Below, piece after piece: positions 4,506 to 54,357 of a stretch of 64,000 bases of DNA. Origin of the DNA: Eutreptiella sp. 'Long Island Sound 2002' (lineage: Eukaryota; Protista; Euglenida); assembly GCA_964036045.1 (NCBI GenBank), contig OZ038378.1, forward strand, positions 59,458,001-59,522,000, in the 5' to 3' direction. Each line of letters opens with the position of its first letter. Positions within the stretch are counted from its first letter, which is position 1. The notes beneath the pieces are model-generated. The model was not told the DNA's origin. It saw only the letters and a program-made list of their open reading frames with translations, and did not search any database. The position numbers and the translations under genes are program-made.

Positions 4506-4592
4506 TCGTACGTTGTGCCATACCGTGGGGGGGGCGTAGGTCGGGGGGCCCAGCCCCCCTCCCCAACTCTCCCGTACCCGCCGTCTGGGCCT

Positions 4593-7935: not shown

Positions 7936-8265
7936 GGTCGCTCATATATTTGACAGCAGAGAGCACAGTGGTGCGTAGCTGGTGGTGGGATTTTCCATTT
8001 TATTAGGTTTCTGAGATTAGATCAGTCAGTTTGAGAGCACGGCCTGATATGGCCCTGCTGCAAGAATATATTGGCGTCCTCCACATCAGCCCTCGACCAA
8101 TTGCTGCTTGAGGACTGAATTACTCGTTGGGAGGTGGCTAGCCAGTTAGAGAGGCATGAGGCATGGTTGTCAACATACCTTCAGATTTGACAAGGACTCA
8201 ATTCACGTTATGGCAATTGCGAAGCAATAAATACACTCAGTGATTTCTTGAATGTGATGGAGGAT

Positions 8266-14369: not shown

Positions 14370-15538
14370 CTAGCAATCGGCCCGCGCAAATGCGCGGGTT
14401 GCAAACAAAATTCATAGAGTGATAGGGCCGCGTCCTCACAGTTGGGTATCCAGCCTACGCGGTGATCCTATCAGGGTTCGCACTGGTCCCATGCGTAGGG
14501 ATGGCAGAGGCTCCGCATTGATCTTGTTGTCGGCCCATCACTCACGGTATGAGACGTTGAAGTTGGATGGCATGTACGTTGTGAGCTGTGGAAGATCTCA
14601 GTCCAATATTTCCGGCCAAACGATGTTTTCAATGACTCCATAGTTGTTTGCGTCAACCTGTAAGTCTGCTGCTGTCCATACTTTGAAAGCGCTTAAATTT
14701 CCGCAGCGCGATAGAGCAACATAAAGTTGACCATGTGAAAATGGTCGGGTTGCCAGTAAGAGACCCACTTTGGAAAACGTTTGACCTTGGCTTTTGTTAA
14801 TGGTCATACAGAAGGCTAACTTTACAGGAAATTGGCAGCGAATGAATTTGATAGGGAGATCATCATCATCAGATACAATGAGATTGATTCGGGGTATGCA
14901 AACGGAGTTTCCTTTGTGTGTTCCTGTTAGCACCGTTGCTTGGATTGTGTAGCGAAGACACGAAGTAACACTCAATCGGGTGCCATTCATAAGGACAGCA
15001 ACACGATTCAAGTTGCGGATGAGTATTATTGGTGCTCCAACCTTAAGATTGAGACAATGTTGTGGCATTCCTGATGGGAGTAACGTGTTTAAGAAATCGT
15101 TTGGGTAAATGTTGGACTGGGCTTCAGAATCTTCATCAAAATAGAAGTGATGCAGTGCGGCATGAAGTTCGCTCTAAGCCCGCTCGGGGGCATAGAGGAA
15201 ACCTCGGGGGAAGTGCAAAATTTGATCCACCCGTGTGCCGTGCTGTGCAGCGCCGGCGCTGGCGCTGAGGATAACATCGACCAATAGTGTTAACTGGTGG
15301 TTCTGGGAGTAGTTACAGGCGGTTAGCGCCCGCTCGGCCAACTGAACAGCCAGAATCGGCGAAGATGCAACCGTACTGCACACGGATCGATGCGCCCCAA
15401 ACATGCGCATACATCTGTGTAATTAAAAAAAAAATGCCGCCTTGTAGCATAAATTATTTTCTGCGAGGCGCACACGCGCGCCGCCGCCAGGCCCGCGCCT
15501 GGACACGACGACGACGACCAGTCTGAAAATAATAGAAA
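14370..15538 (-). mobile_element. Non-autonomous Helitron derivative C2 (1.17 kb)
   Basis: Perfect CCCGCGC-AAAT-GCGCGGG hairpin (14381-14398) plus CTAG (14370-14373). Contains a Pif1 3' fragment. Its ~300-bp 5' end is shared with C1. Confidence 0.8.
14598..15165 (-). pseudogene. Helitron Pif1 helicase C-terminal fragment
   Basis: IYPNDFLNTLLPSGMPQHCLNLKVGAPIILIRNL, NGTRL, QFPVKLAFCMTINKSQGQTF, FSHGQLYVALSR. Confidence 0.9.
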
Positions 15539-15652
15539 CTAGTGCGAATGCCCGCGCTTGAAGCGCGGGCCATATCACCATATCACCATAGACCATATCT
15601 CACACCGCACCGCATTTCACATGCCCAATACAACACACCTCATGTTCCGCAC
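15539..15652 (-). mobile_element. 3' portion of the first non-autonomous Helitron array unit, separated from its remainder by the LTR element
   Basis: CTAG at 15539-15542 plus the CCCGCGC-TTGAA-GCGCGGG hairpin. The sequence resumes at 34136 (CTCATATCCCGTGCC) exactly as in intact units. Confidence 0.9.
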
Positions 15653-17035
15653 TGTAATGAAAAATGGGCATCGGGGCATCAATTGGCCATTATTGGACCA
15701 GAAGTTTCATTAAAAAGCATCACAAATCCTCTAATCCGCATTAACAATTGAGGATCGGCATGCCGCCCCCGACAGTAGGAGCGGCCCCATGACGAATGCC
15801 GAGACGTGGACAGAAATTCTCAAATTCTGTCGATTTTTGTACAAGACGGAATACAAATTGTTTTTTGCATTGAAATGTCGACAATTCCGTCCTTGATCGC
15901 ATCGGTCCCAGCCGGTTTCGTCGACACCGCCTTGGACCACAATGATGATTCTCAAGTCGGTTTCAAGAAGCCGCCTTGATTCCAACGTCGCCGACAACAC
16001 CACTTGATTCTCACAACCACGTCGTGTTTTTATCACATTGATTTCCATTTTGCCATGTTTACCATGTTGATGAATTTTTGTGTCTCTCATGTTGTTTGCA
16101 TGATTCGTAATTGCTCACAATCAAATTCGAGACACACCATTTCCATTGAGTATGATCACATGTGAGTTGCCATGTCAAGAATCCTCAATTCTCCAACATG
16201 CATGACTTCACATGTATGCATTTCTATGCACATGCATAATTCATGTTTCATAGATTCATGCATGATCATGCTCATTAACTACACATGTGTCAAAGCACAT
16301 ACATGGCATGTGTTCCCCACTCCCCTCAACTTTGGGTCACACCTCCCCATGGGCTTGGATATCAATTCAAGCCAAAAGTCACATTTTTTTGCATGAACAT
16401 GCAATGTTTTGCTTTCATGACCCATGGTGAACATTTTTGACTATGTGTCAAATTTTGGAGTTTTTGCATGACATGGGTTCAACACTTCACCCATGCTTTC
16501 CTCTCTCTCTCTCCCCTTCTCTCTCCCATGATGTGTTGTCTCTTTTGTTCCAAAGCAATTGCTCCATATCTCAGGACCTCCTTCTCCTTGCCGAAATTAT
16601 GTTTCAATCTCAATTCGTCGCAATGCCATGAATTCATTGATCCACCGAATCAATTCATTCGAATCATTGACAAGGAATCAGAATTTGGAGAACTCGTATT
16701 GGTGACGTACCAAGGTTTTGAACCACGCATCTTCGTTTGTTTGGGTTTTGTCTAGTGTCCGTTTGTGCTTCAAGGGATTGCTGAATTTTGCATAATTAGG
16801 GTGAGCCCCATTAAAACAAACACCAAGGCATCTCAATCACCACCTTCAACTTCCTAAAGTGCTTCCATTAGGTTTTACATTATCTTAAACTTTTTGGATT
16901 GCATTTTTCGAAGGATTTTCCTTTTTCAGATTTTTTTACTCTGCTTGGAGAATAAATTTTGATCCTGCGCTCCATGGCTCAACTAACACCACCCGCCATG
17001 GATAAGATAATAAGCTCCTCTCCAAGCTTATTACA
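15653..17035 (+). repeat. 5' LTR (1383 bp)
   Basis: TG...CA termini. About 15-20 differences from the 3' LTR counted by eye (~98.5-99% identity). Confidence 0.95.
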
Positions 17036-20000
17036 TGGTAGCAGTTCCGGTTCCCCAATCGGGGCCACATGGGGCGATGTTAAACACCCCAACCTCTCCC
17101 CTCAAGCAATGGAAATCGTTGGGAAGCACGCCCCCCGATCAGCCCCGAAGCACAAACTTAAGGTCCGGTCGTCGTCCTCCCCTCCTACCTCGCGAAGAGT
17201 CAGTTATGGCCAAGGTCAGGGTAGTGAGTTAGCTAGCCACACGGTGCATCATGAGTTGTACGATGTAGCAAGTGGTATAGGAGGTATTAGTGTTAAGCGT
17301 AGGCGACTGGATGATGGGACCGCCGAGACGGACATAGCTATGCCGTCTTGGGTGATCAATACCCTTGTGAAAAGAGTGGTTCGGGCCATGCGAGGGAAGC
17401 CCAAGAGTGGGGCTTCACAGGGGTCCGATAAGGATGTACCAAATGTACCAATGGACTCCCAACCCGAACCCCAATCGGAGGATGCCCGTAGTGAGGCAGC
17501 GACCGGTGTAGTAGGTGCGGTACTTAGTCAGCTTCGTAGGCAATCGGCGGCACACGGCGAAGAACTCCTCCTCTTAAAGGGTGAACATCAAGTGTTAGGG
17601 TCCGAGGCCACCAAGGCAATGGAGGTGGCCAGGGAAGCATCCCAAAAGGCCCAATTGGCCTCCGAGACAGCGGGCCGGAGCGCCGCTACGGCAAAGGGGG
17701 CCAACACGCAGACAACCGCGTTGCGCGACGACGTCTCTCACATCAACAAGCGGCTCGACGAGCACGAGGCAGCCACACGGGCAGACGGAGAGGCCTTGCG
17801 GGGCCGTATACAAGCCTTGGAGGAGGCCAACGCCGCCAGGGGCAGCCACAGCCCGCCGAGCGACGCCGCCACCGAGGTCCGGGCGGCCAAGGTGACCATC
17901 GAGGCGACCAAGAGAGACGTTGCGGCCATGTCGGCCGACGTCAAGGCTGCGGTTGCCGCTGGGGAGTTACTCCGGGGCACCAAAGCCATCCTGGAGGGGC
18001 TCCAGGTCGAGGTGCGCTCCGCACGCAGCGGGGGCGCCCAGCACACCAAGGACATCATCGAGCTCACGGAGACCGTCCGGAACGTCACCGAGACGGCCAC
18101 CCTCGCCCTGCAGGGCGCAGAGGAGGCAACAGCGGCCATCGACAAGATTAAGAGGGACGCCGCCGCCACACGGGAAACCGCCATCGCCAACAACAAGTCC
18201 ATCGACACCACGAGGCGGGACGTCGAGGCCGCGTGGAGCGACATCACCGGTCTCCGCGACGACGTCAAGAAGATCGAGGCAGCCGCGGAGGTCAGCAACC
18301 AAACCCTCCAGCGGCTGCGGCGGGACACGGACGCCAACGTCAAGACCGCCAACAGCGACGCGAAGGCCGCAAGCCAACGGGCAGCCACAGCCCAAGGCGC
18401 CGCCGACGAGGCCAGGACGGACGCAGCTGCCCTGCGCAGGGAGCTGCAGGCGGCCCAGGCCCAGGTCGAGACCCACGCCGCGGCAGTCCAGACGGCCAAA
18501 CGGGAAGCGGCCGACGCACGGCAGCAAGCCGCCGCAGCGGGGGACGCCGTCAAGCTCCTCCAGCAGCGGATCGCCGCCGTCGAACAGGAGAACGAGCGGC
18601 GGTACAACGCGCTGCAACGGGCGTCAGACACAGCCCAAGCAGCGCAACAGGCCGAGGCCGAGAGGGTTAGGGCTCAGTTTCAGGCAGTTCATAGCGCCCA
18701 GGAGGATTGGCAAGCCGCCGTCGCCGTAGAGGTAGAGTCTCTTAGAGGTATGCAGGCTGAGCTAGTAAAAGCACCGGTCGCAAACACCTCCATTGGACAG
18801 GCAAGCATGCATGATAGTGCGGGATTTGCTGAATTGGTTCAAGAAGCGCGGAAAGCTGCACTAACAGCCAAATCAGAGGCAGATAGAGCCGAGTTGAAGG
18901 GTTCCAGTGTGGAACAGATGCAAAGTTTGCATCGACCAGCCCAGGAGGACGCAGTGGGGAGGGCTGAGGCGGCAGCACTCGAGGCTAGGCAAGTTGCTGT
19001 TGCTACCCGGGAGGACTGCAATACTTACGTGCAAAATGCACGTAGATTGGCCGGGGACGCGCAAGCAGCTTATGAGAGACTGGCGCAACAGCCCCCGCCC
19101 CCCTCGCCAGGTCCCACGCCGTCTGGGTTGGATGATTTTCAACAAACGGCTCAACGGTGGTTGAAGGAATGTGAAGCAAGTCCCTCAGTGGCTCGGCAAC
19201 ATGCTGAAAATGCTAGCGAGTTTGCCAAAAGAGCGAATGTGAGTGCTGGCCAAGCAGCAAAACGCGCGGAGAGCATCAAAGATGCTGCTCATCGTGCAAT
19301 AGGTGAGTCACCGGGCGGTGCTGGACCACCCCAGCAGTTTGTGACTGAACTGAAGTTTGAACTTGGACAATTGCAGTCTCAATTTCGAGACTTGAACCAG
19401 GAAATAGGCCAAAAAGTCAACGAATTCGTTGATTTGGTGTCCGACGTCAAATTAGACACTTGCAATAGGTTGGACGACTTAGATGGCAAATTGGCCAGAC
19501 ACTCAGCCACAGGGTCATCCCCCAAAGGAGGTCCGAGTATGGATGGCCTTGAAGCTGACATGCAGCAATTCCGAGAAGAGCTGAATGACGTTTGGGGACG
19601 AATGGAGGCGGACGCCGAGGCATATGATTACTTGGATGAGCGCTTGACGCGGTTGGAAAACAAGACGACTCCAAGTCTAGGGGAATTGGGGCCACGGGAC
19701 AATTCCCGGCCCCCTCGGTTAGACCGCCCCGGTCCCGGACAGCAACCCGCACGTGAAAGAAACGGTTCCTGGTATGAAGACCGTAGGTCAGAACGGTCTG
19801 AGAGGTCTGAAACTAGGGGTAGGGCTTGGTATGATCGGCCCGCCGACCGGCATAGGCGTAGCAGTAGGGATAGCCTACGTAGTGTCCGGTATGGTAGTTA
19901 CAATCGAACCGAGCGGCGTTTTGATCCCCTTGAAGGCTTGCCGGAACCGCCAGGGTGGTGGAAAAGTGGCCCGTATGGACCGCTGCCCGGAGTCTTTGGG

Positions 20001-21593
20001 GTACACGGAGACATTCGCTGGTTCCAGATTGCCCCCTATTTTCAAGACGGTTACTTCATTCCCGGAAAGGCATATCGCACAGCTGCAGAGCTGAAAAAGG
20101 ATATCATACAGAAACGGGCTAAAATTCAGCCCACAGGTATTCCCGTAGAAATGGCTTTCAAGGAGGCCAAGCCTCCATTGAAGTTTAAGTCTTTCACGGA
20201 CATCCCGCGGAATGCAACGGCGGCATCCGATGAAGGGATGTTTGGGGAGCATAAGAATTCCTGGCTCGATCCGAGGACAAAGAAGGCCCTTCAAAAAACG
20301 GCCGAAGTGCCTGTTTGGGACGGTGAGCCTGCCACTTTGGAGCGTTGGATCCATAGAACGCTTCGCTGGAGGCGAAATTATGCCAACAGATTTGATCAAG
20401 ACCAGCAGGCAAAGATCTTAATTGCGGCCATAGAAAACGAGGGTGTAAGGGATAGGATCGAGAAGGCATATGATCGCGAAGACATGTCGTTGAAGGATCT
20501 CTGGTTCTGCATCACCGGGAGAGTGATGGAAAACATCCATCGTCCGGAAGCCGTTTGGCACGCACGACACTTACCTAAGGTTGTTTTGACCTCTAGCATT
20601 TTGGCAGACTGGATGTCGGACTGGATGGAAGAAGAGGCTGATATCCCTGATGGTGTAACAATGCGGCACGCGACTGCACAGTTGCTTGCTGTTCTTGAAC
20701 AATACACCAAGGATGTGCCGGCAGACAAGGAAGTTAAGGCAGCATACAACAAGCTTTACTCTTTGCAGGCAGAGTATGCGGGGGTTGAGTTCAACTACCT
20801 GGAAATTTTCCTCATGATGCTGCCTCTCATCCAGGCTCGGGAGTACCAGGAGCAACAGGAGGAGTATATGAATAATCCTACTGGCTCCGAAGCACGAAAG
20901 GTGCGGGCTTTTGGAAGTAAAGGAGGTGGGACGGGTGACCGGTCTCGCAGTAAAAGTCGCGATGGCAACCGACATGGAGGAGAGTCCAAGCGCTCTCATT
21001 CTCAATCAGGGGCACATCGTGATTTTCGGAATCGCCGGGATAGCGTCACCAGCAATACCTCCCACGCATCTTCCTACAGCCAGCGGCGTAAGGAAGAAAT
21101 CCAGAAGTCCAAGCAACGGTGGAACAATTGCGCCAATTGTGGTCAACCGGGCCACTGGGCACGTCGCTGTCCCCATCCAAAGGATGACAAAAAGACTATT
21201 CCTCAAAAAGGTCCACGGAGCCAGTCCAAATGGCGATCTAGAGCCAAATCAGACGATATATGTAATCGTTGTGGCCAAAAGGGTCACTGGGCATCTGAGT
21301 GTCCCAACAAGGGCGGCTCACAAGAACGGTCACGGGGATCTCGAGACCGAAAGGGGTCTAAGGACCGCGATCATGATACACGGAACCGCCGTCGTAGCCA
21401 AGATCGCGGGCAAGGGTCCAAGGACCGAGGACGCGGGTCCCAGGACAAACGCTCAAACTCTCAGGAGCAGCGTCGCCAAGGTTCAAATTCCAAGGATCGC
21501 TCACGGTCTCGCTCATCAGCAAAACCGGATGACATTTGTCGTCGATGTGGTGGTAAGGGGCACCACGCCAAGGATTGCCCAACAAAGTTGTAG
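16974..21593 (+). CDS. gag: Very large Gag: long Ala-rich coiled coil, capsid-like region, three CCHC zinc knuckles in an RS-rich tail
   Basis: Open frame of ~1540 codons. Knuckles CANCGQPGHWARRC (~21129), CNRCGQKGHWASEC (~21261), CRRCGGKGHHAKDC (~21538). Capsid-like VPVWDGEPATLERWI. The true start is uncertain because the first ATG lies inside the LTR. Confidence 0.85.
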   Translation: MAQLTPPAMDKIISSSPSLLHGSSSGSPIGATWGDVKHPNLSPQAMEIVGKHAPRSAPKHKLKVRSSSSPPTSRRVSYGQGQGSELASHTVHHELYDVASGIGGISVKRRRLDDGTAETDIAMPSWVINTLVKRVVRAMRGKPKSGASQGSDKDVPNVPMDSQPEPQSEDARSEAATGVVGAVLSQLRRQSAAHGEELLLLKGEHQVLGSEATKAMEVAREASQKAQLASETAGRSAATAKGANTQTTALRDDVSHINKRLDEHEAATRADGEALRGRIQALEEANAARGSHSPPSDAATEVRAAKVTIEATKRDVAAMSADVKAAVAAGELLRGTKAILEGLQVEVRSARSGGAQHTKDIIELTETVRNVTETATLALQGAEEATAAIDKIKRDAAATRETAIANNKSIDTTRRDVEAAWSDITGLRDDVKKIEAAAEVSNQTLQRLRRDTDANVKTANSDAKAASQRAATAQGAADEARTDAAALRRELQAAQAQVETHAAAVQTAKREAADARQQAAAAGDAVKLLQQRIAAVEQENERRYNALQRASDTAQAAQQAEAERVRAQFQAVHSAQEDWQAAVAVEVESLRGMQAELVKAPVANTSIGQASMHDSAGFAELVQEARKAALTAKSEADRAELKGSSVEQMQSLHRPAQEDAVGRAEAAALEARQVAVATREDCNTYVQNARRLAGDAQAAYERLAQQPPPPSPGPTPSGLDDFQQTAQRWLKECEASPSVARQHAENASEFAKRANVSAGQAAKRAESIKDAAHRAIGESPGGAGPPQQFVTELKFELGQLQSQFRDLNQEIGQKVNEFVDLVSDVKLDTCNRLDDLDGKLARHSATGSSPKGGPSMDGLEADMQQFREELNDVWGRMEADAEAYDYLDERLTRLENKTTPSLGELGPRDNSRPPRLDRPGPGQQPARERNGSWYEDRRSERSERSETRGRAWYDRPADRHRRSSRDSLRSVRYGSYNRTERRFDPLEGLPEPPGWWKSGPYGPLPGVFGVHGDIRWFQIAPYFQDGYFIPGKAYRTAAELKKDIIQKRAKIQPTGIPVEMAFKEAKPPLKFKSFTDIPRNATAASDEGMFGEHKNSWLDPRTKKALQKTAEVPVWDGEPATLERWIHRTLRWRRNYANRFDQDQQAKILIAAIENEGVRDRIEKAYDREDMSLKDLWFCITGRVMENIHRPEAVWHARHLPKVVLTSSILADWMSDWMEEEADIPDGVTMRHATAQLLAVLEQYTKDVPADKEVKAAYNKLYSLQAEYAGVEFNYLEIFLMMLPLIQAREYQEQQEEYMNNPTGSEARKVRAFGSKGGGTGDRSRSKSRDGNRHGGESKRSHSQSGAHRDFRNRRDSVTSNTSHASSYSQRRKEEIQKSKQRWNNCANCGQPGHWARRCPHPKDDKKTIPQKGPRSQSKWRSRAKSDDICNRCGQKGHWASECPNKGGSQERSRGSRDRKGSKDRDHDTRNRRRSQDRGQGSKDRGRGSQDKRSNSQEQRRQGSNSKDRSRSRSSAKPDDICRRCGGKGHHAKDCPTKL
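17036..17044 (+). promoter_or_regulatory. Primer-binding site, initiator tRNA-Met type
   Basis: TGGTAGCAG immediately follows the LTR's terminal CA and is complementary to the 3' end (...CUGCUACCA) of many eukaryotic initiator tRNA-Met. Confidence 0.75.
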
Positions 21594-23375
21594 GGGGATG
21601 GCAAGCTTCTAAAGTCGCGTGCTCCACGCGACAGAGGCGCCCGGATGCCACGCCCCAGATTATCGGCCAATGGCAAGCCCCGCCGACGGCCAGCTCGCAC
21701 TGTGGATGTTAATAGGGTGCTGTCACGTTATCAGTCGCCGGATATCCACGTGTCTTCAATTCAACTGGATGAGGCAGGAACCGAAGTCCTCCGGTTCCCG
21801 CTAAAGCCCAAGAATCGAAAGACCAACAAAATGGTTGAACTCGTAGTGTCATCAGGCATTCAGCTTAGTGATTCCCTCAATTTGCCTGAAATCATGGTTC
21901 CGGCTTTGGTTGACACTGGGGCACAAATTGAGGTCTTAGCTGGAGAAGAACTTTTCCCGAGCGCGGCACTGATCGACGCACCCCATCCAGTACAGTTGGT
22001 GACTGTAGGCCGTAAGCCCTTGTCAGGTGGTCGTAAGGGTGTCTTGTCTACCGTACGGGTACCGGTAGAAACACCTGAAGGGTTACGAGTGTTTAAGTGC
22101 GTACAAGTCTTCATACATGTGGCCGCCATAGGACCTCGCCTAATATTGGGGTTTCCCTTCTTGTTGAGGTATGGGTTAGCAGTAGTGCCTGGAAGGGATG
22201 CCCTAGTGAGTCTGGATAGTTTCCAGAGAAGGCGGAAGCCGGCTTATCAACATGGGGGTATGTCTGAGTATGCGCTGGAGGTGGCAGGAGCACATATTCA
22301 GGCTGAATATTCCACGGAGTTAGTTCGGCCGCGGTATTTTAAATGGGTGGCACCTGACATCACGCTGCAGTCGTGTTTGAGTGGCAAACAACATGTTGAT
22401 AAACGTACCACCAAAGCCCGTAGGTCTTCAGATGCCACCACGGCACCGACGGTCAGCTTTCTGGACAGCAAGCTTGAATATTTTCAGTCTGATTGTGTCA
22501 ACACACGTTGTCACCGCCCAGCGCACCTGGTATGGGACCACATAGGTCAAGTGCCCACAGCAGGCATGTGTTTTTGGTGTTTTCAGCGATCCTTCGGGGA
22601 GCCTGAGCCAGACTGGACTCCTCAAGAGTTGGCTCAACGTAGGAAGGGGGTATCGTACGAACCCCGTAGGTCAATCTCAGAGACAAAGGTCATCACGATT
22701 CCTTCATTATCACGCAGTCTCGCCAACCTACAAGGGGTGGTGGATCTCTCAGCCTACACCAACGAGCAACGCCCCCCTACCCCGACTCGGCGTCCTCGAC
22801 GTCCTTCAATCCCCATTCCCCCATCAGCCACAGAATCACCGGCCAATCAACAGTCTTTCGGGCCAGCTACGGCAGCCCCATCATCAGAGTCAGCCGGTCA
22901 AGAAGTTTCTCTTCCTCCCTCCCCTCCTCTCTCCTCTCCGCTCTCCCCCCCATGTATGTCTCCTACTCTCGTCGAACTCATTCAAGCTCATATTTCTTCA
23001 AATCCTCTTCGGGTCAAACAGGTCAGACCAGAATCCATTTTACCAACAAAGGGTACGCCCGGGTCCGCAGGCTACGATTTATACGCCGCGGCCGATATTC
23101 TTATTCCCTCCGGAGGACAGCAACGGGTACCCACGGGGTTAGCATTCACTACCCCCGCTCTCACTTACGGTAAGATTCAGGACGGGTCAGGGAACGCGAG
23201 CAAGTTAGCGTTAAGGGTAGGGGCAGGGGTAATCGATCACGATTACACGGAAGAAGTCGATATTTTATTAAGCAATCAAGCACCTCGGGATCATATGGTG
23301 CGGCAAGGAGACAAAGTCGCCCAAATGACCCTCGAACTTCATCTCAATCCTTTAGTTCAACCAGTCTCCGAATTA
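21594..23375 (+). CDS. pol: Pol segment 1: aspartic protease, spacer, dUTPase
   Basis: ALVDTGAQ...RLILGFPFL protease. dUTPase motifs AGYDL, GVIDHDY, GDKVAQ. In frame with gag across the TAG at 21591-21593. Confidence 0.85.
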
Positions 23376-23414
23376 TAAGCCACGGAACGCGGTTCCGGCG
23401 GGTTCGGTAGTACA
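23001..23414 (+). pseudogene. dut: Trimeric dUTPase domain within pol
   Basis: All five motif positions are present. Motif 5 (ERGSGGFGST) follows an in-frame TAA at 23376-23378. Motif 2 is altered (QDGSG instead of xRSG). Confidence 0.9.
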
Positions 23415-25247
23415 GACACACCCAAAGGTATGGTACCTCCCTCCCCGGGTAAGCCCCACCCCCCCTCCCAGGAAGAGGGAGTCCAAATCTCTCCAGTTTC
23501 ATCAAGCACACTAACCTTACTTTCTCCATCTCGCGCACAAGAGTACGTCCTCTTGGTGTGCACATATATTACCCTTTGGGTGGCGGCGCACAGGGCTGGC
23601 ATGATTCAGGCGGGCAGTGAGACCGCTGATCAGGGTTCTGCAGCGAACCAAGCCCTGGGGCTAGTGCAAGGACTTGTATGTTCTTTGTTGCTGGCCTATT
23701 CAGACAGCATCAAGGGTCACAATCATGTAGACCCAGCCAACAGTGGCGATCTGTCGGGTACGGAGCAGTTTCCTCCGGTACCTACACATAAATCCAAGGC
23801 CTTGGTCCCAGTACGACACGCTGGACCTGCAATGGGCGTTGGTCTGCCACACAGGGTGGCAGTTTTGCTTGCTAACACATTAGCGGAGTTCACTGGTACT
23901 GAACCAGAGTTGGTTGTAGAGGAGGCCACAGGTAGCATGGAAACCGAGTTACCAAGTGTCAGTAACCGCGCCACGGTAGGCCACCCCGGCGCCAACCCTT
24001 CGGGGTGGGGATCGGCCCGTATAAACTCAGCTCAGGTTACCGAGTTGAGGGCGGTTACATGTGAAAGTCTGGCGTTGACAGACTTAGATCTGTGGGCGGA
24101 TTCTGAAAATTCAGACTGCGCGACTGATTCTAGAGTCAGTTCTGACATTGCAGCTAGCGACACCGGCGGTGGTGGGCCGTCCAAGGTGCTACGAAAGAGC
24201 ACCAAGGCGGTTAAGTCCTCATTCCGTACCCATGAGGGTCGAGGCAATATTCGGCATGTTCAGGCGGCGGCCAGACGCAAAGCGCGGCAAAAATGGCTGC
24301 GTGATAGGGATGATTTGGCAGTCCGCCAGGATATTGTCCTTCGCATTGAGCGATGGGCTAAGTCGCTGGTTGACAAGTGTCATTTCCGGGAATTTACGGA
24401 TGTATTCAGTAGTAAACGGCTTGCTCGTTTCCCGAAATATTGGGATGAGCAAAAGGACGGGTTGTCACAGCCATGGGCCGGAGAGAACCTTTGGTTACAT
24501 CCTCCCGATAGGCTGTGGGAGCAAACCGTTCAAAAGTTGAAGTTTGAGCAAGGCCAAGGTATCGCTATTGTCCCGACATGTAAGGATAGGGATTGGTGGT
24601 GGTCGCTGAGCGAGGTGGTAGTAGACTGGGTGGATGTGCCGGTCGGTGAACCTCTTTTTGTAGATCATGATGGTAAGGTACGCTCAGCCGATAGGGAGTA
24701 TCATATAGTTGTAGTAGATGCGCTAGGATGGACTCCTGAGGAGTCACAGGCGGAACCAGCGGATACCGCCGACAAGCAGCGCGCTGTATGGGACTCGACC
24801 CTTCCCCGCGGGGATTGTGTCGCCCTACACCCGCACGACTGCACAGTTTCCGCTCCCTTTTCACACACACACCCCAAGCCTTCCTTAGAGTCGCTCATGC
24901 ATGGTACTTCTAACCATCTAGTACAACAGGTTTCGTCCGTACAGGTCGAATGCCGCCAGATGCAGCGACGGGCACATCGCGAAGCAACCAAACGGGCCAA
25001 GTCAGGGGACATCAGTCAGTCAGAGTCCGAAGCATCCCCAGGTCCCGATAACTCCAGTATGGAGGAGTGTGATACCATGCATGAGCGGCCATTGGTAACT
25101 ACACCCCCGGTAATGAATGTGTCTTGTGTGGATAGGTCTAGTCTGGGTCCTAGGGAGATAAGCCAGCATGATTGGGTACAAGGCTACCGCCGCCACATCC
25201 GGTCTGTCATCAAGTCGGATGAGGACTGGGAAGGATGTGAAGACCTC
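23379..25247 (+). CDS. pol: Pol segment 2, containing a Dam/DIRS-type adenine-methyltransferase-like domain (~24300-24730)
   Basis: DDLAVRQDIVLRIERW...TDVFSSKRLARF..YW...DGLSQPWAGENLWLHPPDRLWEQTVQKL...GIAIVPTCKDRDWWWSL follows the DxFAS...W...W-NPP...K...P.W...W pattern. Confidence 0.65.
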
Positions 25248-25250
25248 TAA

Positions 25251-27281
25251 GCCAAAATTATGGCTCGGTATGAAAAAACCGTTTTTCATCCCATTCGCAC
25301 TCAAGATGTGACCCCGGAAGCCAAAAAGGCAAGAGGGCCACATTCTACGCTCCGCTTGGAGCTCTTGCCTGAACATGCTGGCCCCAGAGCTGACAAGCCC
25401 ATACGAGCCGTGGGTGAACATGAAAAAGCGTTATGGGATAAAATCGTGAAGTTCAAGGACCGTGGCATGCTACGAGATGCAAAAGGGCAGCCACAATGGG
25501 TCGCCAGAGCGTTCTTGGTGCCAAAGCCAGGAAAAAATGATTGGCGGTTGGTCATTGACTACCGTCATCTTAATTCCTGCTTAAAGGGCAACAGTTTTCC
25601 GCTGCCTGTCATTGAGGACCAAATTGCCAACCAGGAGGGCAATTTTATCTTCTCCATCATCCATTTGGAGGATGGTTTTCATCAAATGCATCTGGAGGAG
25701 AGCAGCAAGCATCTTACTGCCTTCTGTACTCCATTTGGCATTTTTGAATGGAATGTCCTTCCAATGGGTGTTAAGGTGGGGCCTGCAGCCTACCAACAAA
25801 TGGTCCAATATGTGACACGCAATTGTCCTCAATCCCGACCCTACATTGATGACATTCTATCGTCGTCAGGGCGGAATGTTTTAGAGCCGGACAAGCTCAC
25901 AATTGAGCAAAAACAACAACCGGGAACGCTCAAGAAATACTTTGAGGCGCATTATGAGGACCTGTGCAAGATGTTTGATGCACTGGAGGAGGCTCAGTTA
26001 ACAGTTAAGCCCTCCAAGGTCCATCTATTCAAACGGATTGTCCAGTATGTGGGTCACATCCTTAAAGATGGATGTCGATATCCGAGTCCCACCAAAATCT
26101 CAGCAGTAAAAGAATGGAAATGGGAGGATATCAAAACAGCCAAGCACATGAAGGGATTCCTTGGGCTCGTGGGCTGGTATCAGGTGTATATTGACAAATT
26201 TGCCCAAATGGCGGCACCGCTGATGAACGCCCTCAAAGGCAAATATCAATATGAGCCCAGGGACCCTAATGCCCCACGGACATCCACTGGAGTGCCTCAA
26301 AAGAGGAAGAAAATCAAGTTAACACCTAAGGAAGCCCGAATTCATTGGACCGATGAAATGAAAACCAACTTCGAGGCCCTTAAGAATGTGTTAACCGAGA
26401 AAACCAGGCTGTACTTACCCAAGCCAGGCCTGCCGTGGCGCATCATCACTGATGCGTCCAATTATGCAGTCGCTGGGGTCCTTGAGCAGCAGCAGGAAGA
26501 TGGTAACTGGCACCCAGTTGCCTTCTATTCCCGCAAGCTGCAAGGGAACAAGGCCGGCGTCAATGGGAGTACCAAAAACACAGGGCAGTTTGCCTGGACT
26601 CCAAGGGAGCAGGAAACATATGCCATTGTGTGTTGCCTGTTGAAATTTCAGTCATGGATCGGAGGATCTGCAGTTGACATCCAGACTGATCATTCAGCCA
26701 TTGTGAAATGGTACAAGGAGGACTTGTGTACAATTTCTGGGCCGTTAGGACGGCGGGGACGTTGGCATGAGTTTTTGAGCCGGTTCAACCTTATTATTAC
26801 TTACCGTCCAGGTGAGGAGAATCAGGTTGCCGATGCTCTTTCTCGGTTTGCCTATCCAGCAGGAGAGGCCCAAGACACCAACTTCCATGGTGGGGATGAT
26901 GACCTGGCTGGATGGGAGGAAGCCGAAAAACAGGAATGGCAGTCTGTGCGTGATTACCTTAAAACAGCGGAGCCCGAAGCCTTTTCCCATGAGCAAGCCA
27001 TGCTTAACCAGCTACAGGTAGCCACAGTGGCTGCACTACAAGCGGTTAAGTCGGTCAACACGGTTGAGGCCGAGGCACCCTACGTCGCAACAGACGGGTC
27101 CAAGTTTAGCACTCTGGAGGAGCTTTTCATCCACTCCGTGGGGGACGAAAGCCTGGCAGGGCCATCAAGCCGCTGTCAGACGCGTCCCCAGATCGTGAAT
27201 GGTCGAAAATACACCCGTGCTCAAAAGAAGAGACTGAATTTGGACTCTAAATCCGACACAAGGCACAGTTGGCATCACTGA
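25251..27281 (+). CDS. pol: Pol segment 3: reverse transcriptase and RNase H
   Basis: DWRLVIDYRHLN, IIHLEDGFHQM (Asp replaced by His at 25662), VLPMG, YIDD (25842-25853), IITDASNY, EQETYA, TDH, NQVADALSR. In frame with segment 2 across TAA 25248-25250. Confidence 0.95.
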   Translation, partial: AKIMARYEKTVFHPIRTQDVTPEAKKARGPHSTLRLELLPEHAGPRADKPIRAVGEHEKALWDKIVKFKDRGMLRDAKGQPQWVARAFLVPKPGKNDWRLVIDYRHLNSCLKGNSFPLPVIEDQIANQEGNFIFSIIHLEDGFHQMHLEESSKHLTAFCTPFGIFEWNVLPMGVKVGPAAYQQMVQYVTRNCPQSRPYIDDILSSSGRNVLEPDKLTIEQKQQPGTLKKYFEAHYEDLCKMFDALEEAQLTVKPSKVHLFKRIVQYVGHILKDGCRYPSPTKISAVKEWKWEDIKTAKHMKGFLGLVGWYQVYIDKFAQMAAPLMNALKGKYQYEPRDPNAPRTSTGVPQKRKKIKLTPKEARIHWTDEMKTNFEALKNVLTEKTRLYLPKPGLPWRIITDASNYAVAGVLEQQQEDGNWHPVAFYSRKLQGNKAGVNGSTKNTGQFAWTPREQETYAIVCCLLKFQSWIGGSAVDIQTDHSAIVKWYKEDLCTISGPLGRRGRWHEFLSRFNLIITYRPGEENQVADALSRFAYPAGEAQDTNFHGGDDDLAGWEEAEKQEWQSVRDYLKTAEPEAFSHEQAMLNQLQVATVAALQAVKSVNTVEAEAPYVATDGSKFSTLEELFIHSVGDESLAGPSSRCQTRPQIVNGRKYTRAQKKRLNLDSKSDTRHSWHH

Positions 27282-28993
27282 ACATGATTGAGACTATGTC
27301 TTCCATGAGTTGGCATATGCCGGGGGTGGAAACCCTCGTTGTCGGAGACATAGAAGCCATTAAAGTGCCCCCCGCAATCTCTGTCCTTTATGATGCCTGG
27401 TCCTCCCACTATGAGCTTGACCCGTTCTTTGCTCCCCACTGGGATGCTTTACGGCAGCACAAGTTCATTGAGGTTGACGGACAGTCATATACACTGCATA
27501 ACAATAAGGTGCGAAGCAATGGACGTGTGTGTGTACCATATGACTTGGTCAAACAAGTCATCAAAGCTTGCCATGAGTATGCACACCCTGGCATCAGAAA
27601 AACCCTGGAAATTTTCAACCGGAAGTATTCTTGTGCATATCAATTGAAAGAACTACACCAAATGGTGCAATCAATTGTCAATAAGTGCAATATTTGCGGC
27701 CAAACTAAGGGCCGTAAGGCTTTACAGCCACAGTCCAATCATCCTGCACCAGTACCTGAGTACCCGTTTGCATCAGTCTGTGTTGACTTTTGTGACCTCA
27801 GCGGACGTCCTTGTACCGCAAACGGCAACACATATGATTATGTTTTGGTCGTCGTTTGCCGTTTAACGGGCTATGTGGTGGCAGTGCCATGCAGTAAGAC
27901 CCTGACCGCACTTGGTCTAGCGGATCTATATCTGGAGAGGGTGGTGCCCGTCATGGGTATGCCCCAAGAGATCTTTTCAGACCAGGACCATCTGGTTACG
28001 GCCGAGTTCTTCAGCGAACTCTGTAAACTATCAGGGATCAGCATGAAGCAATCCACCATCAAGAGACCCCAGTCAAACGGGCGTGCGGAACGAGCAGTTC
28101 AGGTGGTCGTTGAATCCCTCAGGCAGTGGCTGGTGAAAACAACTCAGCAAAACTGGGCGCAGTTGTTGCCACTAGCCATCTGGGCTTCCAACGACATCCT
28201 TGGCCCGATCAGTGGGTATTCGCCACACTATCTAGTGTTTGGCCGCAATCCCATTGGATTTGGAGACTGCCCACCCATTCTTCCCCAATCTGAGTGTCGG
28301 GATGCAGTTGGATTCTTCCAACAGTTGGTGCAGGACCGCCGCTACGTACGGGACTCCCTGAATAAGATTCACCGCCGTAAGGCGGAGGAATTCCGAAAGG
28401 CGCACCCTCCCCATGTCTATGTCTTTGGGGAGAAAGTCTGGTACAGGGACTACAAGACTAAGAAAGGTACTGATAAGCTGCATCGGGTCTGGGAAGGACC
28501 AGGTGAAGTCCTTCAGCGCCTAGGCAGCAATACTTACTTGATAGCTACCGAACGAGGCGAAATGGCGCTAGACACTATGCGTCTCAAGCCTTACGTGGCC
28601 CCTGAGGAGGGTACTCCTCCTCTGCACTACTATACGGACCAGGATTTTCTGGTCGAGTCCGACAAGTACGTCATTGAGGACATTGTTTCTCATACGACGG
28701 TTGGACGGGGGCGCCGTAAGCACATAGAGTGGGAGGTCAAGTACAGGGGGTACCCAGAGACCGAATTTCAGCCCGCTAGTGCATTCATGCACGATATTAA
28801 TGATCTCTGGACCCAGTACAACAAGAAACATAAAATTGACCTCCAACTTAGCGACATTCGCCAAGTGCTGGCCCGTTCGGCACCAAATTCTACATTGGAT
28901 GCGGAGTTTGAGGCCCGTCTGGTTATCCAGACTACGCAACGTACGGCCTGGAGGGCCTTGGTAGCCTCATTTAAGAATGATACACCTTTTTAG
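27269..28993 (+). CDS. pol: Pol segment 4: integrase with C-terminal chromodomain
   Basis: HHCC zinc finger (CHEYAHPG...CNICG), VDF/SDQD/ERAV DDE core, WEGPG (GPY/F), chromodomain YVIEDIVSH...EWEVKYRGYPETEFQP. Reads in the -1 frame relative to RT. Confidence 0.95.
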   Translation: MASLNMIETMSSMSWHMPGVETLVVGDIEAIKVPPAISVLYDAWSSHYELDPFFAPHWDALRQHKFIEVDGQSYTLHNNKVRSNGRVCVPYDLVKQVIKACHEYAHPGIRKTLEIFNRKYSCAYQLKELHQMVQSIVNKCNICGQTKGRKALQPQSNHPAPVPEYPFASVCVDFCDLSGRPCTANGNTYDYVLVVVCRLTGYVVAVPCSKTLTALGLADLYLERVVPVMGMPQEIFSDQDHLVTAEFFSELCKLSGISMKQSTIKRPQSNGRAERAVQVVVESLRQWLVKTTQQNWAQLLPLAIWASNDILGPISGYSPHYLVFGRNPIGFGDCPPILPQSECRDAVGFFQQLVQDRRYVRDSLNKIHRRKAEEFRKAHPPHVYVFGEKVWYRDYKTKKGTDKLHRVWEGPGEVLQRLGSNTYLIATERGEMALDTMRLKPYVAPEEGTPPLHYYTDQDFLVESDKYVIEDIVSHTTVGRGRRKHIEWEVKYRGYPETEFQPASAFMHDINDLWTQYNKKHKIDLQLSDIRQVLARSAPNSTLDAEFEARLVIQTTQRTAWRALVASFKNDTPF

Positions 28994-29100
28994 GCGTAGT
29001 TCACTACTTCGGGCTGAATTTTGTGTGTCTTGTTGCCCTTGTCATGTGCCACATCACCTTCCCTGGCTATGTGCAGAACTTTATATAGCTTTATATAGCC

Positions 29101-29946
29101 ATGCATGTTCAATCCAAGCTTGGTTCCCATTCGCAGCTTATTGGTCCACGTTGTATTGGGATTCATCAAGACCACCAAGCGCTTTGGGAAATGGTGTGTG
29201 CCAGGATGCGGAACGAGGTCAACTTAGCCGGTGCTCAGGCCATGGTCATGGTGGTGGGGTTATGGCAAGACGGGATACTGCAGCTCTCCATGGGTAAAGG
29301 CAAGCCTGTGTGCCATGTCATGCCCATGCCTATGGCCTGGGTGGTGTTCTTCACACCCAATCTATTGCACGGAGTATGGAAGGCCAACCCTGAGGCAACG
29401 GGAGCACGGGCGAGCATCACGTACCGTGGGTACCTCGCGCCGGAGTTCTTGAAGGACTCGGTGGTGACTCAGCAAGATGCGACGGACTTGTTTGAAGTCC
29501 CGGTGGATCTTGAAGGCCCGGGTGTCCAGGTCTTTACGCTGAGTGCCGGGTTCCTCATCGCCGTGTCCCCACGCCGACACCACCAGAAACACCACTTCTT
29601 TGAGGAGTGGAAGATGTCGTGGGATGTCTTGCCGGAGTCCCGTCATTGTCCTGGTGACCGTCGAGCGTGCCAAGCGGGCCCCCAGTTCAATTTCCGTGAA
29701 GGGGGCGTCTCAGGCCATGTGGCCATCCCGCCGGCCCTCGAGACCTCCATGGCAACGTCAATGTCATGGCCTCCGATGTGTGACTACCGGTTCTGGATCA
29801 ACCAGGCAATTTATAACTGGTACCCGGGTGACGACCACGATTGGTACACAATGGTACCGTGGCACGTCCGGAAGCCCAATGCCAACAAGGCCCGGAAGAA
29901 CCGTCGGGCCCGCAATGCGAAAGAAGGTGTGGTTATAGGGCTTTAG
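29101..29946 (+). CDS. Extra ORF after integrase: AlkB-type 2OG-Fe(II) dioxygenase domain plus an unknown C-terminal region
   Basis: IGIHQD (HxD at 29164-29172), LLHGVW (His 29368) and RASITYR (R-x5-R at 29407-29427), with ALKBH2/3-like spacing. Confidence 0.65.
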   Translation: MHVQSKLGSHSQLIGPRCIGIHQDHQALWEMVCARMRNEVNLAGAQAMVMVVGLWQDGILQLSMGKGKPVCHVMPMPMAWVVFFTPNLLHGVWKANPEATGARASITYRGYLAPEFLKDSVVTQQDATDLFEVPVDLEGPGVQVFTLSAGFLIAVSPRRHHQKHHFFEEWKMSWDVLPESRHCPGDRRACQAGPQFNFREGGVSGHVAIPPALETSMATSMSWPPMCDYRFWINQAIYNWYPGDDHDWYTMVPWHVRKPNANKARKNRRARNAKEGVVIGL

Positions 29947-31794
29947 CCTACACTTGCGGTCTCAACCCTTCCCGGTAAAGTGTGTAGTGGCATAGTCTAA
30001 TGATCTCGGCCCTTCCTTCGGGATTGTGAGTCCTGATCTCGTCCTATTTGCCAAATTCTGCAGTCAAGAGGGTTGGGACATCAGAATTTCAGGACCAGGC
30101 AGAAATTTTGACCCTACATTCTGAATTTCAGGGCCAATCAGAATTTTTTTTTTGACCTCGCACTGAATTTCTGAATTTCTGTTGGCCCGGTAGCTAAAAC
30201 TGAGGCACTGCGGACCTATTGTCTTGACATTGTGATAGGATACCAATTTTCTGAATTTCTGGTTTGGGTTCGGCACTTCTTGTGTGGCCCTACCGTCACG
30301 GTGAGGATCCCGAGGCTCGGCCCTTTGCGTCATTGTGGCCCTGCCGTACGGATGTCATGCATGGATCCGTTGTGCATCACACTTGAGCTCCCCTTCTCAT
30401 TTTTTCAGGATCAAACAAGCATCAGAAATTTCAGTGATATGCAAAAAAAAGTACCGTGAATTTCTGAGGTATTGCATTGCTACCTTGTGAATCCTTCGCC
30501 CGTTCCTTCGGGAGTGCGTGGCCTGGGGTTTGCCGGGTTCAAGCGGGTAGTTCGACCCCTTGCTTTGAAGCATGAGTGGTCCTGCCGCACCGCTTACGAG
30601 TGATGAGGGGCCTCAGCCGCTATTTCCCTCTCTCCATGTGTTCGGTAGCATGTTAAGTTAGGGTTCATCACATTTGCAAACATGTCATACCCTGCTCTGC
30701 ACCCTTTCGGCCCGTGTGTCGGAAATGCGTGGCCCTAGGCGGTGTAGGGCACATTACATTGCTCGACCCCTTCCTTATTAGGTTGTGTGGTCCTGTTTTT
30801 GCTTTGGTAGGGTGACAACATTCGTTTTTGTGCCATCTCTTCTCCATATTTCTCCTCCACCCCCTGAAGTTGTCCTGAAATGTCCAGCAGTGAAGTACCC
30901 CCCTTCCCATGGGTACAGGGGGCCGGTTTTGGTTACAGGGTGGCTAAAACGGGTGGGAATTGGTGCATTGGGTCCCAAGGGGCCACCAGAATTTTACGAA
31001 ATTCATTTTTGATTCATTTTTGAATTTTTATAACATTCCTGGTCGGTCCCAGGGGTCCAGCCAGCCAGTCAGTCAAATTCTTCCTCCCCTCCCTTGTTCC
31101 CATCCCGATTCCCCTGCTCTTTGTCTTTCTCTTTGTTTTTGTTCTTTGTGTTCGCCAGCCATCGCGTTCAGGTGTCCAATGCCCGAGGCCGGGGTCCGCG
31201 TGGCCGAATTTCAGCTCAATCCTTCCCCGAAGTCCGAATTTTAATTCTGTAAGTCTATGCCTCAACCCAGCTCCGACAGTTTGCAGTGCGTGTACCGTCT
31301 TGTCCACCAACGCCATGTCCGCGTGTACGCACGGTAAACCACATGTCTCAGTGCGTGTACCGACTTCGTTGGCATCGCCATGCTCGCGTTAGCGCACGGT
31401 AAACAACGAGGGTCAGGGTCAGGGTAGGGTTCAAGCCCCCTCCCCGAGGCAATTCGGGCGTGAGAGGTGACAGCCCCCCCCCCCCACAACCCATAATTCA
31501 GGCTGCAGAATTTCTACAGCCCGACAGGGTCACTTTGGGAGGGTCACAGGGGTACACAGGCGGTTACAGTGAGCCTGAAATTGTTTCACACGCCTCAATG
31601 GGGTCCCAAAGGACTCTTAGAACTTTACGAAAACATTTTTCGACCCGTTTTCAATTTTTGGCGCGATTCCTGGTCGACATCAGGAAATCAGCCAGCTGTC
31701 AGCCAGAATTCTGACAGCCCCCCCCCCCCGCCCCTCCGGGGTGAAAGTATGTTTTTCACCTCCGGGACCCGGGCGGGTGATATGGGGTACACTC

Positions 31795-32560
31795 CCCCCT
31801 ATTTTAGGGATGCCGAGTACAACCATATACTCTCTTCCCGCCAATTGACACCTAAGCGGCACTGTGAGGTACAGATTAGATCCAGATTGACAGTTTTTTA
31901 CTGCATCAGAGCGAACACCAATTTTTGATGCCAAAAATGGGGTTTTTGCATTTTTCGTCCGATATTGGCGATGAAAGTGTGTAAGCCCCCTATTCTGGGT
32001 ATGCCGGATTCAGTTCGGATGCCGGTTTGGACCCACGGGACACTGATTCACCCCCCCCCCCCCCTGCTGCTGCAGATTCTGATTTCTGGCTGGCATCAGG
32101 CAAAAATCGATTTTTTTTGACAAAAAATTCAATTTCTGTCAAATTTTTGCCATAGGGGGTCCATTTCATATACAACCCCCCTATTTTGAGGGTGCCTGAC
32201 GCACTGGCGACCCTCGTTTGCCACCAGATGAGGTCCTGTGACCTGCAGCAGGGTGCAGGATGGTGCTGTTTGTCAAATTTCAGCACCGCACATTTTTCCA
32301 AGGGGCTGAAAATGCTCTTTTTTGGGAAAATTGACCAGAACTGATGTCCAGCACCCCCAACCCCCCTAATTTGAGGGTGCTGAGATCAAATATGATGCTC
32401 GTTTTGCGCCATATCACAGTGGGATGACAGAATTTCCATTTTTCAGTGTCCAGAGTTCATTCTTCCCGTTTGTCATTTTTTTCACGGTGAAAATGGGAAT
32501 TTCAGCTTAAATGGTCCAGCCTGAAGTACAAGCCTCATACCCCCCTATTTTGAGGGTGCC
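31795..32560. repeat. Five copies of a CCCCCTATTTTGAGGGTGC-like motif at ~180-190-bp spacing with dissimilar spacers
   Basis: Copies at ~31795, 31986, 32176, 32361 and 32540. Confidence 0.7.
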
Positions 32561-32738
32561 GGATTCAACTGTGACATCCGTTTGCTCTCAAATAGCCTCA
32601 GTGCATGGCCATGGGCCTGTGGGGGTCGGTGACATACTTCCTCCAAAGAAATCCCTCAACCCCTTTTCATTGACGATTTTTTTGCCAATTTGGGTTGAGA
32701 TCGACCACGTGCATGGCCGGGACACCATGACGTAGTCT

Positions 32739-32748
32739 AGGAAGGGGG
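32739..32748 (+). promoter_or_regulatory. Polypurine tract
   Basis: AGGAAGGGGG directly abuts the TG of the 3' LTR. Confidence 0.9.
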
Positions 32749-34130
32749 TGTAATGAAGATGGGCATCGGGGCATCAATTGGCCATTATTGGACCAGAAAT
32801 TTCATTAAAAAGCATCACAAATCCTCAAATCCGCATTAACAATTGAGGATCGGCATGCCGCTCCCGACAGTAGGAGCGGCCCCATGACGAATGCCGAGAC
32901 GTGGACAGAAATTCCCAAATTCTGTCGATTTTTGTACAAGACGGAATACAAATTGTTTTTTGCATTGAAATGTCGACAATTCCGTCCTTGATCGCATCGG
33001 TCCCAGCCGGTTTCGTCGACACCGCCTTGGACCACAATGATGATTCTCAAGTCGGTTTCAAGAAGCCGCCTTGATTCCAACGTCGCCGACAACACCACTT
33101 GGTTCTCACAACCACGTCGTGTTTTTATCACATTGATTTCCATTTTGCCATGTTTACCATGTTGATGAATTTTTGTGTCTCTCATGTTGTTTGCATGATT
33201 CGTAATTGCTCACAATCAAATTCGAGACACTCCATTTCCATTGAGTATGATCACATGTGAGTTGCCATGTCAAGAATCCTCAATTCTCCAACATGCATGA
33301 CTTCACATGTATGCATTTCTATGCACATGCATAATTCATGTTTCATACATTCATGCATGATCATGCTCATTAACTACACATGTGTCAAAGCACATACATG
33401 GCATGTGTTCCCCACTCCCCTCAACTTTGGGTCACACCTCCCCATGGGCTTGGATATCCATTCAAGCCAAAAGTCACATTTTTTTGCATGAACATGCAAT
33501 GTTTTGCTTTCATGACCCATGGTGAACATTTTTGACTATGTGTCAAATTTTGGAGTTTTTGCATGACATGGGTTCAACACTTCACCCATGCTTTCCTCTC
33601 TCTCTCTCCCCTTCTCTCTCCCATGATGTGTTGTCTCTTTTGTTCCAAAGCAATTGCTCCATATCTCAGGGCCTCCTTCTCCTTGCCCAAATTATGTTTA
33701 AATCTCAATTCGTCGCAATGCCGTGAATTCATTGATCCACCGAATCAATTCATTCGAATCATTGACAAGGAATCAGAATTTGGAGAACTCGTATTGGTGA
33801 CGTACCGAGGTTTTGAACCACGCATCTTCGTTTGTTTGGGTTTTGTCTAGTGTCCGTTTGTGCTTCAAGGGATTGCTGAATTTTGCATAATTAGGGTGAG
33901 CCCCATTAAAACAAACACCAAGGCATCTCAATCACCACCTTCAACTTCCTAAAGTGCTTCCATTAGGTTTTACATTATCTTAAACTTTTTGGATTGCATT
34001 TTTCGAAGGATTTTCCTTTTTCAGATTTTTTTACTCTGCTTGGAGAATAAATTTTGATCCTGCGCTCCATGGCTCAAACAACACCACCCGCCATGGATAA
34101 GATAATAAGCTCCTCTCCAAGCTTATTACA
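32749..34130 (+). repeat. 3' LTR (1382 bp)
   Basis: Copy of 15653-17035, followed by the TSD CGCAC. Confidence 0.95.
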
Positions 34131-54334: not shown

Positions 54335-54357
54335 GGCCGGATTGCCTCACACAGTGG

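Follow-up and report, generated by a model that had tools for sequence, protein, structure and literature searches.

Long terminal repeat (LTR) retrotransposons with a DAM domain (DAM-LTR elements), including chromodomain-bearing ones and ones with a cytosine DNA methyltransferase (DNMT), have been described in Euglena gracilis (10.64898/2026.05.21.726589). The Phalaenopsis element Gypsy_Pa_2799, of the Ogre/Tat lineage, encodes in its second open reading frame (ORF) an AlkB domain that lies near known plant and human RNA demethylases and removes N6-methyladenosine (m6A) from RNA in vitro (PMC9289625). A dUTPase located between the protease (PR) and the reverse transcriptase (RT) occurs in the bdelloid elements Juno, Vesta and TelKA, in basidiomycetes and in the planarian Burro (PMC5408684, PMC6431247), and capture of an enzymatic ORF3 is common (PMC5408684). 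The 64,000 nucleotide stretch of Eutreptiella sp. 'Long Island Sound 2002' analysed here (contig OZ038378.1, positions 59,458,001 to 59,522,000; referred to as the window) contains a Ty3/Gypsy element at 15653–34130 that shares features with all three groups. The new part is likely its ORF3, which likely represents a permuted AlkB family, and each module otherwise has precedent.

Like the DAM-LTR/EpiLTR elements, this is a Ty3/Gypsy retrotransposon with a DIRS-type DAM-like domain and a chromodomain; EpiLTRs add a cytosine DNMT, however, which was not found in the present element, and the DAM-LTR motif is usually NPP, compared to HPP here (10.64898/2026.05.21.726589). The placement of the dUTPase between PR and RT is shared with the dUTPase-bearing Ty3/Gypsy elements (PMC5408684, PMC6431247), although the rotifer representatives are without a chromodomain (PMC5408684). 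A separate ORF with an AlkB-type domain is shared with Gypsy_Pa_2799 (PMC9289625), but ORF3 of the present element is undetectable with Pfam and its halves are apparently swapped. The first-pass annotation, made from the letters of the window, knew of no description of the four-module combination. No description of it was found in the literature searched, with most subscription papers outside that scope, but DAM with a chromodomain, AlkB in a Gypsy element and dUTPase in a Gypsy element had each been described already. The main text of 10.64898/2026.05.21.726589 does not mention dUTPase, AlkB or dioxygenases, though its figures could show a dUTPase; the partial text of PMC9289625 lists neither DAM nor dUTPase for Gypsy_Pa_2799, and that of PMC5408684 contains no methyltransferase, AlkB or oxygenase terms.

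The gene in question is located in the 3' region of the element:
29101–29946, plus strand: ORF3, 281 aa, likely a circularly permuted AlkB-type 2-oxoglutarate (2OG)-Fe(II) dioxygenase

A separate ORF with the pattern HxD..H..R-x5-R had been reported in the first-pass annotation and is found at these coordinates; the apparently swapped order of the AlkB halves, its most unusual feature, had been overlooked. The first half of ORF3 contains H22, D24, H90, R103 and R109, and the second half contains N239 and Y241. The half with the HxD, H, R and R residues is therefore encoded first and the half with the lid and NxY second, which is the reverse of the order in AlkB; NxY and HxD flank the break. 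In ORF3, only 22 residues separate HxD from the start, and five divergent relatives begin 12–20 residues ahead of the motif, thus the part of AlkB located before HxD is absent there. The C-terminal half reads R..Q.G..F...P....Q.IYN.YPG, like the AlkB lid and NxY strand. In the order given above, the seven ORF3 residues match H131, D133, H187, R204, R210, N120 and Y122 of E. coli AlkB, the cofactor-site positions of that enzyme. Among 18 relatives, where covered, the residues are retained as follows: H22 in 7/7, D24 in 6/7, H90 in 11/12, R103 in 8/11, R109 in 12/12, N239 in 9/10 and Y241 in 8/10. These cofactor-site positions, all seven of them, rank with the most conserved of a family whose full-length members are 25–38% identical.

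The ORF3 cluster has 24 close members, and 25 matches at E ≤ 1e-3 were obtained among 1.84 billion representatives, one of which (P0068) is a false hit to a repeat protein. The listed relatives all come from long contigs of the European Nucleotide Archive (ENA). There are four full-length ORF3 types that are 25–38% identical and have the same order of halves; one of these types, a second subfamily, is represented by four full-length copies of 312 aa on different contigs. Many other relatives are frameshifted fragments, and the alignment (A2) omits P0003, P0004, P0005, P0056, P0062, P0067, P0069, P0070 and P0071 as frameshifted, short or tandem-repeat sequences, along with P0068. In P0004, the first ~100 residues of ORF3 are amplified in tandem. 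A tblastn search of phages produced no match, and the ORF3 profile gave 20 weak matches at E ≤ 1 in 201 bacterial genomes, the top two being unrelated proteins. RNA run X16 yielded only scattered short contigs (share 0.05), which do not amount to evidence of expression. Just ahead of the ORF3 ATG, at 29080–29100, is a duplicated CTTTATATAG in an indel-rich stretch, a possible trans-splice acceptor that would give ORF3 an mRNA of its own.

The permutation hypothesis was recorded before the profile and structure tests. The AlkB reference consisted of 214 sequences, reduced to 67 by redundancy filtering. Its C-terminal half aligned to ORF3 residues 89–109, a match that realignment lengthened as far as HxD, while its N-terminal half aligned to residues 186–241. 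The summed score of the halves (42.3) was reached by 0/400 column shuffles and 0/400 block shuffles (0/300 in related runs); for the C- and N-terminal halves taken singly, column shuffles reached the score in 0 and 1 of 400 cases and block shuffles in 1 and 7 of 400. A blind VIA-align search of 48,161 chains with an ORF3 model of predicted local distance difference test (pLDDT) 37 ranked E. coli AlkB first (Z 4.1, root-mean-square deviation 3.6, 75 aligned). This alignment pairs model residues 164–240, in the C-terminal half of ORF3, with residues 28–121 of the E. coli AlkB chain, in its N-terminal half. As regards the double-stranded beta-helix fold of the AlkB family, this first rank speaks for the C-terminal half of ORF3 only. 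OsALKBH1 was ranked 10 and ALKBH5 was ranked 33 in the same search. When the AlkB reference was rotated against the whole of ORF3, the scan stayed flat and gave no information, probably owing to the linker that joins the ORF3 halves; global-mode hhalign was likewise uninformative. Prediction of a complex of the ORF3 halves with Fe, in which the alignment was unused, scored 0.01 and is not evidence either way.

ORF3 is very probably a 2OG-Fe(II) dioxygenase of predicted activity, and it is likely that this protein is a circularly permuted AlkB. It shares with E. coli AlkB and the bacterial ALKBH8-like proteins the HxD...H iron triad, R-x5-R, the NxY strand and a conserved lid region with the motif R..Q.G..F/Y, the last two being C-terminal in ORF3. 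It differs from the AlkB family in the reversed halves, a helical insert after HxD and the lack of a sequence-level match. Neither the canonical AlkB order nor a match to Pfam 2OG-FeII_Oxy_2, which the first-pass annotation had expected, was found, and ORF3 is therefore filed as a permuted AlkB-like variant and not as a canonical member. The tripeptide PWH follows directly after NxY, where AlkB has the HxD strand, and this hints in the sequence at an origin by tandem duplication and trimming. No circularly permuted AlkB was found in the literature, including the partial texts of PMC4738411, PMC6338049, PMC8868631, PMC3248453 and PMC5890265; where passages on this topic spoke of permutation, they referred to methyltransferases.

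Several observations weigh against the assignment of ORF3 as a permuted AlkB. Neither ORF3 nor its relatives matched Pfam, PHROG, NCBIfam or any AlkB or otherwise relevant protein data bank (PDB) sequence, and the ORF3 profile gave a single irrelevant PDB match (E 0.17). Either half is weak when taken singly, the reversed profile scores 15.9–16.8 against 17.9–18.6 for the N-terminal half, and ranking by hidden Markov model-to-sequence comparison reached an area under the curve of only 0.63–0.75. Both AlphaFold models are poor, with a pLDDT of 35.0 for ORF3 alone and 36.7 with 21 alignment rows. Even models that lack a clear match typically reach a Z of 7–8, compared to 4.1 here, Foldseek comparison of the ORF3 models with PDB and BFVD gave no matches at E ≤ 0.001, and VIA-align of the single-sequence model produced unrelated folds with no AlkB in the top 50.

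The ESM Atlas leaned weakly towards TET/JBP for ORF3, which points to the main, though rather unlikely, alternative in which a TET/JBP-type 2OG-Fe(II) dioxygenase, or an enzyme with such activity, would oxidise 5-methylcytosine or thymine in the newly made DNA of the element, allowing escape from CpG silencing or entry into the base-J pathway. The nearest Atlas clusters have Tet_JBP on 11% and 34% of their members, with scores of 0.88–0.89. These scores are below 0.9 with 149–157 shared features and provide a lead only; the C-terminal half by itself had no usable Atlas match. The element is CpG-depleted (observed/expected 0.64–0.91) and E. gracilis is heavily CpG-methylated (10.64898/2026.05.21.726589), both of which suit such an activity. 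The R-x5-R ending and the NxY strand suit AlkB instead, and judged by their titles, the top 50 chains of the structure search include three of AlkB and none of TET/JBP. ORF3 did not match Pfam, PF12851 included. No TET/JBP protein was found in 401 genomes.

It is quite improbable that ORF3 is no relative of AlkB at all, or that it lacks catalytic function or is a mere passenger of the 3' region, with motif matches that arose by chance. The missing family match, weak scores and poor models would fit this explanation, as would the numerous frameshifted relatives and the ORF3 deletion forms described below. The conservation of the seven cofactor-site positions at such low identity argues against it, along with the agreement of the profile test and structure search on the swapped mapping and the four full-length copies of the second subfamily.

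ORF3 is absent from a portion of the copies, and the segment involved covers nearly all of the gene:
28992–29924, no strand assigned: 933-bp segment absent from some copies, identified from contig joints

Contigs of runs X1, X2, X8, X4 and X5 connect 28991 to 29925 and skip these 933 bp, and runs X7 and X9 have a near-identical joint to 28991/29925. Further joints at 29000–30253 and 29332–29750 bring the number of different deletions to at least three. The ends of the 933-bp segment have a short near-match, AGG(C/T)GT, and no inverted repeats. The last seven codons of ORF3 lie outside the gap and are common to copies that are 92–93% identical. One diverged contig (run X7, 15 differences) spans from the end of the integrase to the region upstream of ORF3. 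A nested element with its own target-site duplication (TSD) is disfavoured by the lack of terminal inverted repeats, the tail outside the gap and the at least three different deletions; the best fit is an ancestor that had ORF3, followed by deletion. Since some members of the family have lost it, ORF3 is an accessory gene.

The Pol polyprotein upstream of ORF3 contains the following modules:
21894–22214, plus strand: aspartic protease (DTG), identified by motif only with no Pfam match, 84% to P0012
22998–23417, plus strand: dUTPase, Pfam E 7e-22, sister E 5e-31
24261–24734, plus strand: DAM-like adenine-methyltransferase domain of the DIRS type, motif HPPD, PHROG111 E 4.4e-6
25377–26123, plus strand: reverse transcriptase (YIDD), Pfam RVT_1 E 2e-21
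26433–26852, plus strand: RNase H (RH), Pfam RT_RNaseH E 9e-20
27521–28252, plus strand: integrase (IN), zinc-binding and core domains, Pfam Integrase_H2C2 E 3e-8
28409–28597, plus strand: GPY/F-like module, GPG variant, from sequence
28664–28831, plus strand: chromodomain, best PDB match HP1 E 0.0023, 80% to sister

The closest solved structure to the RT is that of Ty3 (E 3e-29). The position of the chromodomain at the integrase C-terminus is a chromovirus feature, though the match is weak, with no Pfam match at E ≤ 10 in the sister proteins, and the module ahead of it reads GPG compared to the GPY/F of chromoviruses. The window copy is defective, with in-frame stops at 23376–23378 and 25248–25250 and a frameshift near 27252. 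Its first RT aspartate is replaced (IHLED, versus IDLED in 6/6 sisters), as is the dUTPase motif-2 arginine (QDGSG, versus QDRSG in 6/6 sisters), and a stop codon precedes the last dUTPase motif. The sister cluster (n = 73) includes P0012 (2395 aa) and P0021 (2399 aa), which carry all modules from the protease through the chromodomain in a single reading frame. The dUTPase, DAM and chromodomain are therefore native to the family and not nested, and the window copy is a broken member of a multi-copy family that is itself not dead. The expectation that sister copies would carry every module thus holds for these three, but ORF3 is missing from some copies. Identity between the subfamilies is 84% for PR, 70% for dUTPase, 83% for DAM, 91% for RT, 88% for RH, 81% for IN and 80% for the chromodomain, as opposed to 35, 45 and 41% for three linkers, and this contrast indicates selection on each Pol domain. 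A Cys/His cluster at 22440–22600, in the protease–dUTPase linker, is retained in P0012 though the linker is otherwise 35% identical, and is a possible extra zinc finger.

The DAM-like segment matches PHROG111 (DNA methyltransferase) at the E value given above, and scored E 0.09–0.18 against Pfam Dam in the window and sisters, far below the Pfam cut-off; the screen for DAM-LTR elements in 10.64898/2026.05.21.726589 used a hmmsearch threshold of E ≤ 1e-5. Of the profiles anticipated by the first-pass annotation, that of the dUTPase was thus recovered clearly and that of Dam only at E 0.18. No PDB match was obtained for the segment, no DAM was found among viral contigs, and a metagenome match (L001) was dismissed as a 17-residue chance match. 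Cytosine DNMT was searched for in ten element ORFs and in P0012 and P0021 without a match. The catalytic position reads HPPD in 9/12 sequences and HPTD, HPPY or HPAD in the rest; NPP occurs in none, and the (N/D)PP(Y/F/W) motif of active N6-adenine methyltransferases is not present. NPP is reported for almost all DAMs, and retrotransposon DAMs had no activity in a heterologous assay in E. coli (10.64898/2026.05.21.726589); the DIRS methyltransferases were also judged likely inactive (PMC4738411). The proposal of a complete base-modification toolkit on this element is thus borne out as far as all four modules are present, but with HPPD in place of NPP-aromatic, the role of this variant as an adenine-methyl writer is doubtful. 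A single circuit with an active DAM as the writer of N6-methyladenine (6mA) on the cDNA and ORF3 as the eraser of methyl marks from RNA or DNA is very unlikely. The conservation of DAM on par with PR and IN speaks for it, as does the higher 6mA on DAM-LTR insertions than on other LTR elements in three species (10.64898/2026.05.21.726589); the HPPD variant, the heterologous inactivity, the likely inactivity in DIRS and the copies that keep DAM and lose ORF3 speak against it.

It is moderately probable, taking the parts together, that the locus represents a defective member of a multi-copy Ty3/Gypsy family with dUTPase, DAM-like and chromodomain modules in Pol and a permuted AlkB-type ORF3 that is predicted to demethylate the element's own RNA or nascent cDNA. 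The exclusion of uracil by dUTPase and the tethering of integration by chromodomains are established in other elements. In the present family, the protease would free the Pol domains, the dUTPase would exclude uracil from the cDNA and the chromodomain would tether integration. ORF3 would be produced as a separate protein, in which the N-terminal half would supply the Fe triad and two arginines and the C-terminal half the nucleotide-recognition lid and NxY strand, completing one AlkB fold. The permuted order would probably stem from a tandem duplication with subsequent trimming. By analogy with the in vitro activity of the Gypsy_Pa_2799 AlkB, the enzyme would strip alkyl marks or methyl marks placed by the host (1-methyladenine and 3-methylcytosine, or m6A) from element RNA or nascent cDNA. 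The HPPD DAM would more likely bind nucleic acid or recruit the 6mA machinery of the host than methylate alone. ORF3 would be helpful yet dispensable, which would account for its recurrent deletion.

The boundaries of the element and the gag region are as follows:
15648–15652, plus strand: 5' TSD CGCAC, from flank comparison
15653–17035, plus strand: 5' LTR, ends TG...CA, 98.8% identity with the 3' LTR
17036–17044, plus strand: primer-binding site TGGTAGCAG, directly 3' of the 5' LTR
16974–21593, plus strand: gag ORF, ~1540 aa, three CCHC knuckles (Pfam zf-CCHC x3) and a long low-complexity N-terminal part
32739–32748, plus strand: polypurine tract AGGAAGGGGG, just before the 3' LTR
32749–34130, plus strand: 3' LTR, from self-comparison
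34131–34135, plus strand: 3' TSD CGCAC, from flank comparison

Self-comparison of the window aligned the LTR pair over 1383 columns with 16 substitutions and 1 indel. The primer-binding site presumably resembles the 3' end of initiator tRNA-Met. The LTRs, TSD, primer-binding site, polypurine tract, PR-RT-RH-IN order and Ty3-like RT identify the element as Ty3/Gypsy (Metaviridae). Its description as an LTR-bounded, TSD-flanked element with PR-dUTPase-DAM-RT-RH-IN-chromodomain agrees with the LTR identity, the CGCAC flanks and the domain matches. The gag ORF has its first ATG within the 5' LTR, and at 16974–17044 its frame continues across the LTR end and primer-binding site. The gag stop TAG is in frame with pol (21591–21650) and is followed by G-rich bases and then a hairpin ~20 nt downstream, a context that is a possible stop read-through signal, with a fold z of -1.7 that is not significant.

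The element is inserted into one unit of an array of ~870-bp units, between Helitron pieces. This array (34131–39900 and 15527–15652) contains 170/204-bp subrepeats and (ACGA)n, and runs X1 and X2 cover it at very high depth. Contigs from three runs connect 15649 with 34134, as expected of uninterrupted array units, and sequence of the window is present in runs that bear the labels organism A and organism B and also in estuary metagenomes. A Helitron Rep-PIF1 helicase with in-frame stops is located at 40792–46626 on the minus strand, with a second PIF1 fragment at 14598–15173 on the same strand. Three long overlapping ORFs (431, 814 and 1006 aa) on the plus strand at 53039–59569, with a CCHC knuckle at the start and no further Pfam match, are probably ORF1 of another retroelement. 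The region from 1 to 9200 contains GC-rich repeats and ORFs of 280–620 aa without a Pfam match, and includes a 372-bp repeat (1–372 and 7107–7478, 98.7% identity) that possibly marks the ends of another element. Rfam gave no matches.

The chances are even that ORF3 stands at the head of a family of AlkB-type dioxygenases that are circular permutants by nature and have catalytic activity, disseminated by the LTR retrotransposons of one algal lineage, and that with the dUTPase, DAM and chromodomain it forms the most complete base-modification kit seen on one retroelement. If so, an eraser would join the writers and readers of the newly described DAM-LTR/EpiLTR elements, and Gypsy elements would have captured an AlkB-type gene for a second time, independently of the first. 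A naturally occurring permutant would mean that the AlkB fold tolerates a change in the order of its lid half and its catalytic half. The permutation would also explain the invisibility of the family to Pfam-based screens and would imply that more such genes have been missed. The same samples contain natural copies that have ORF3 and others that lack it, and these would provide a ready comparison for the effect of the enzyme on retrotransposon RNA or DNA.

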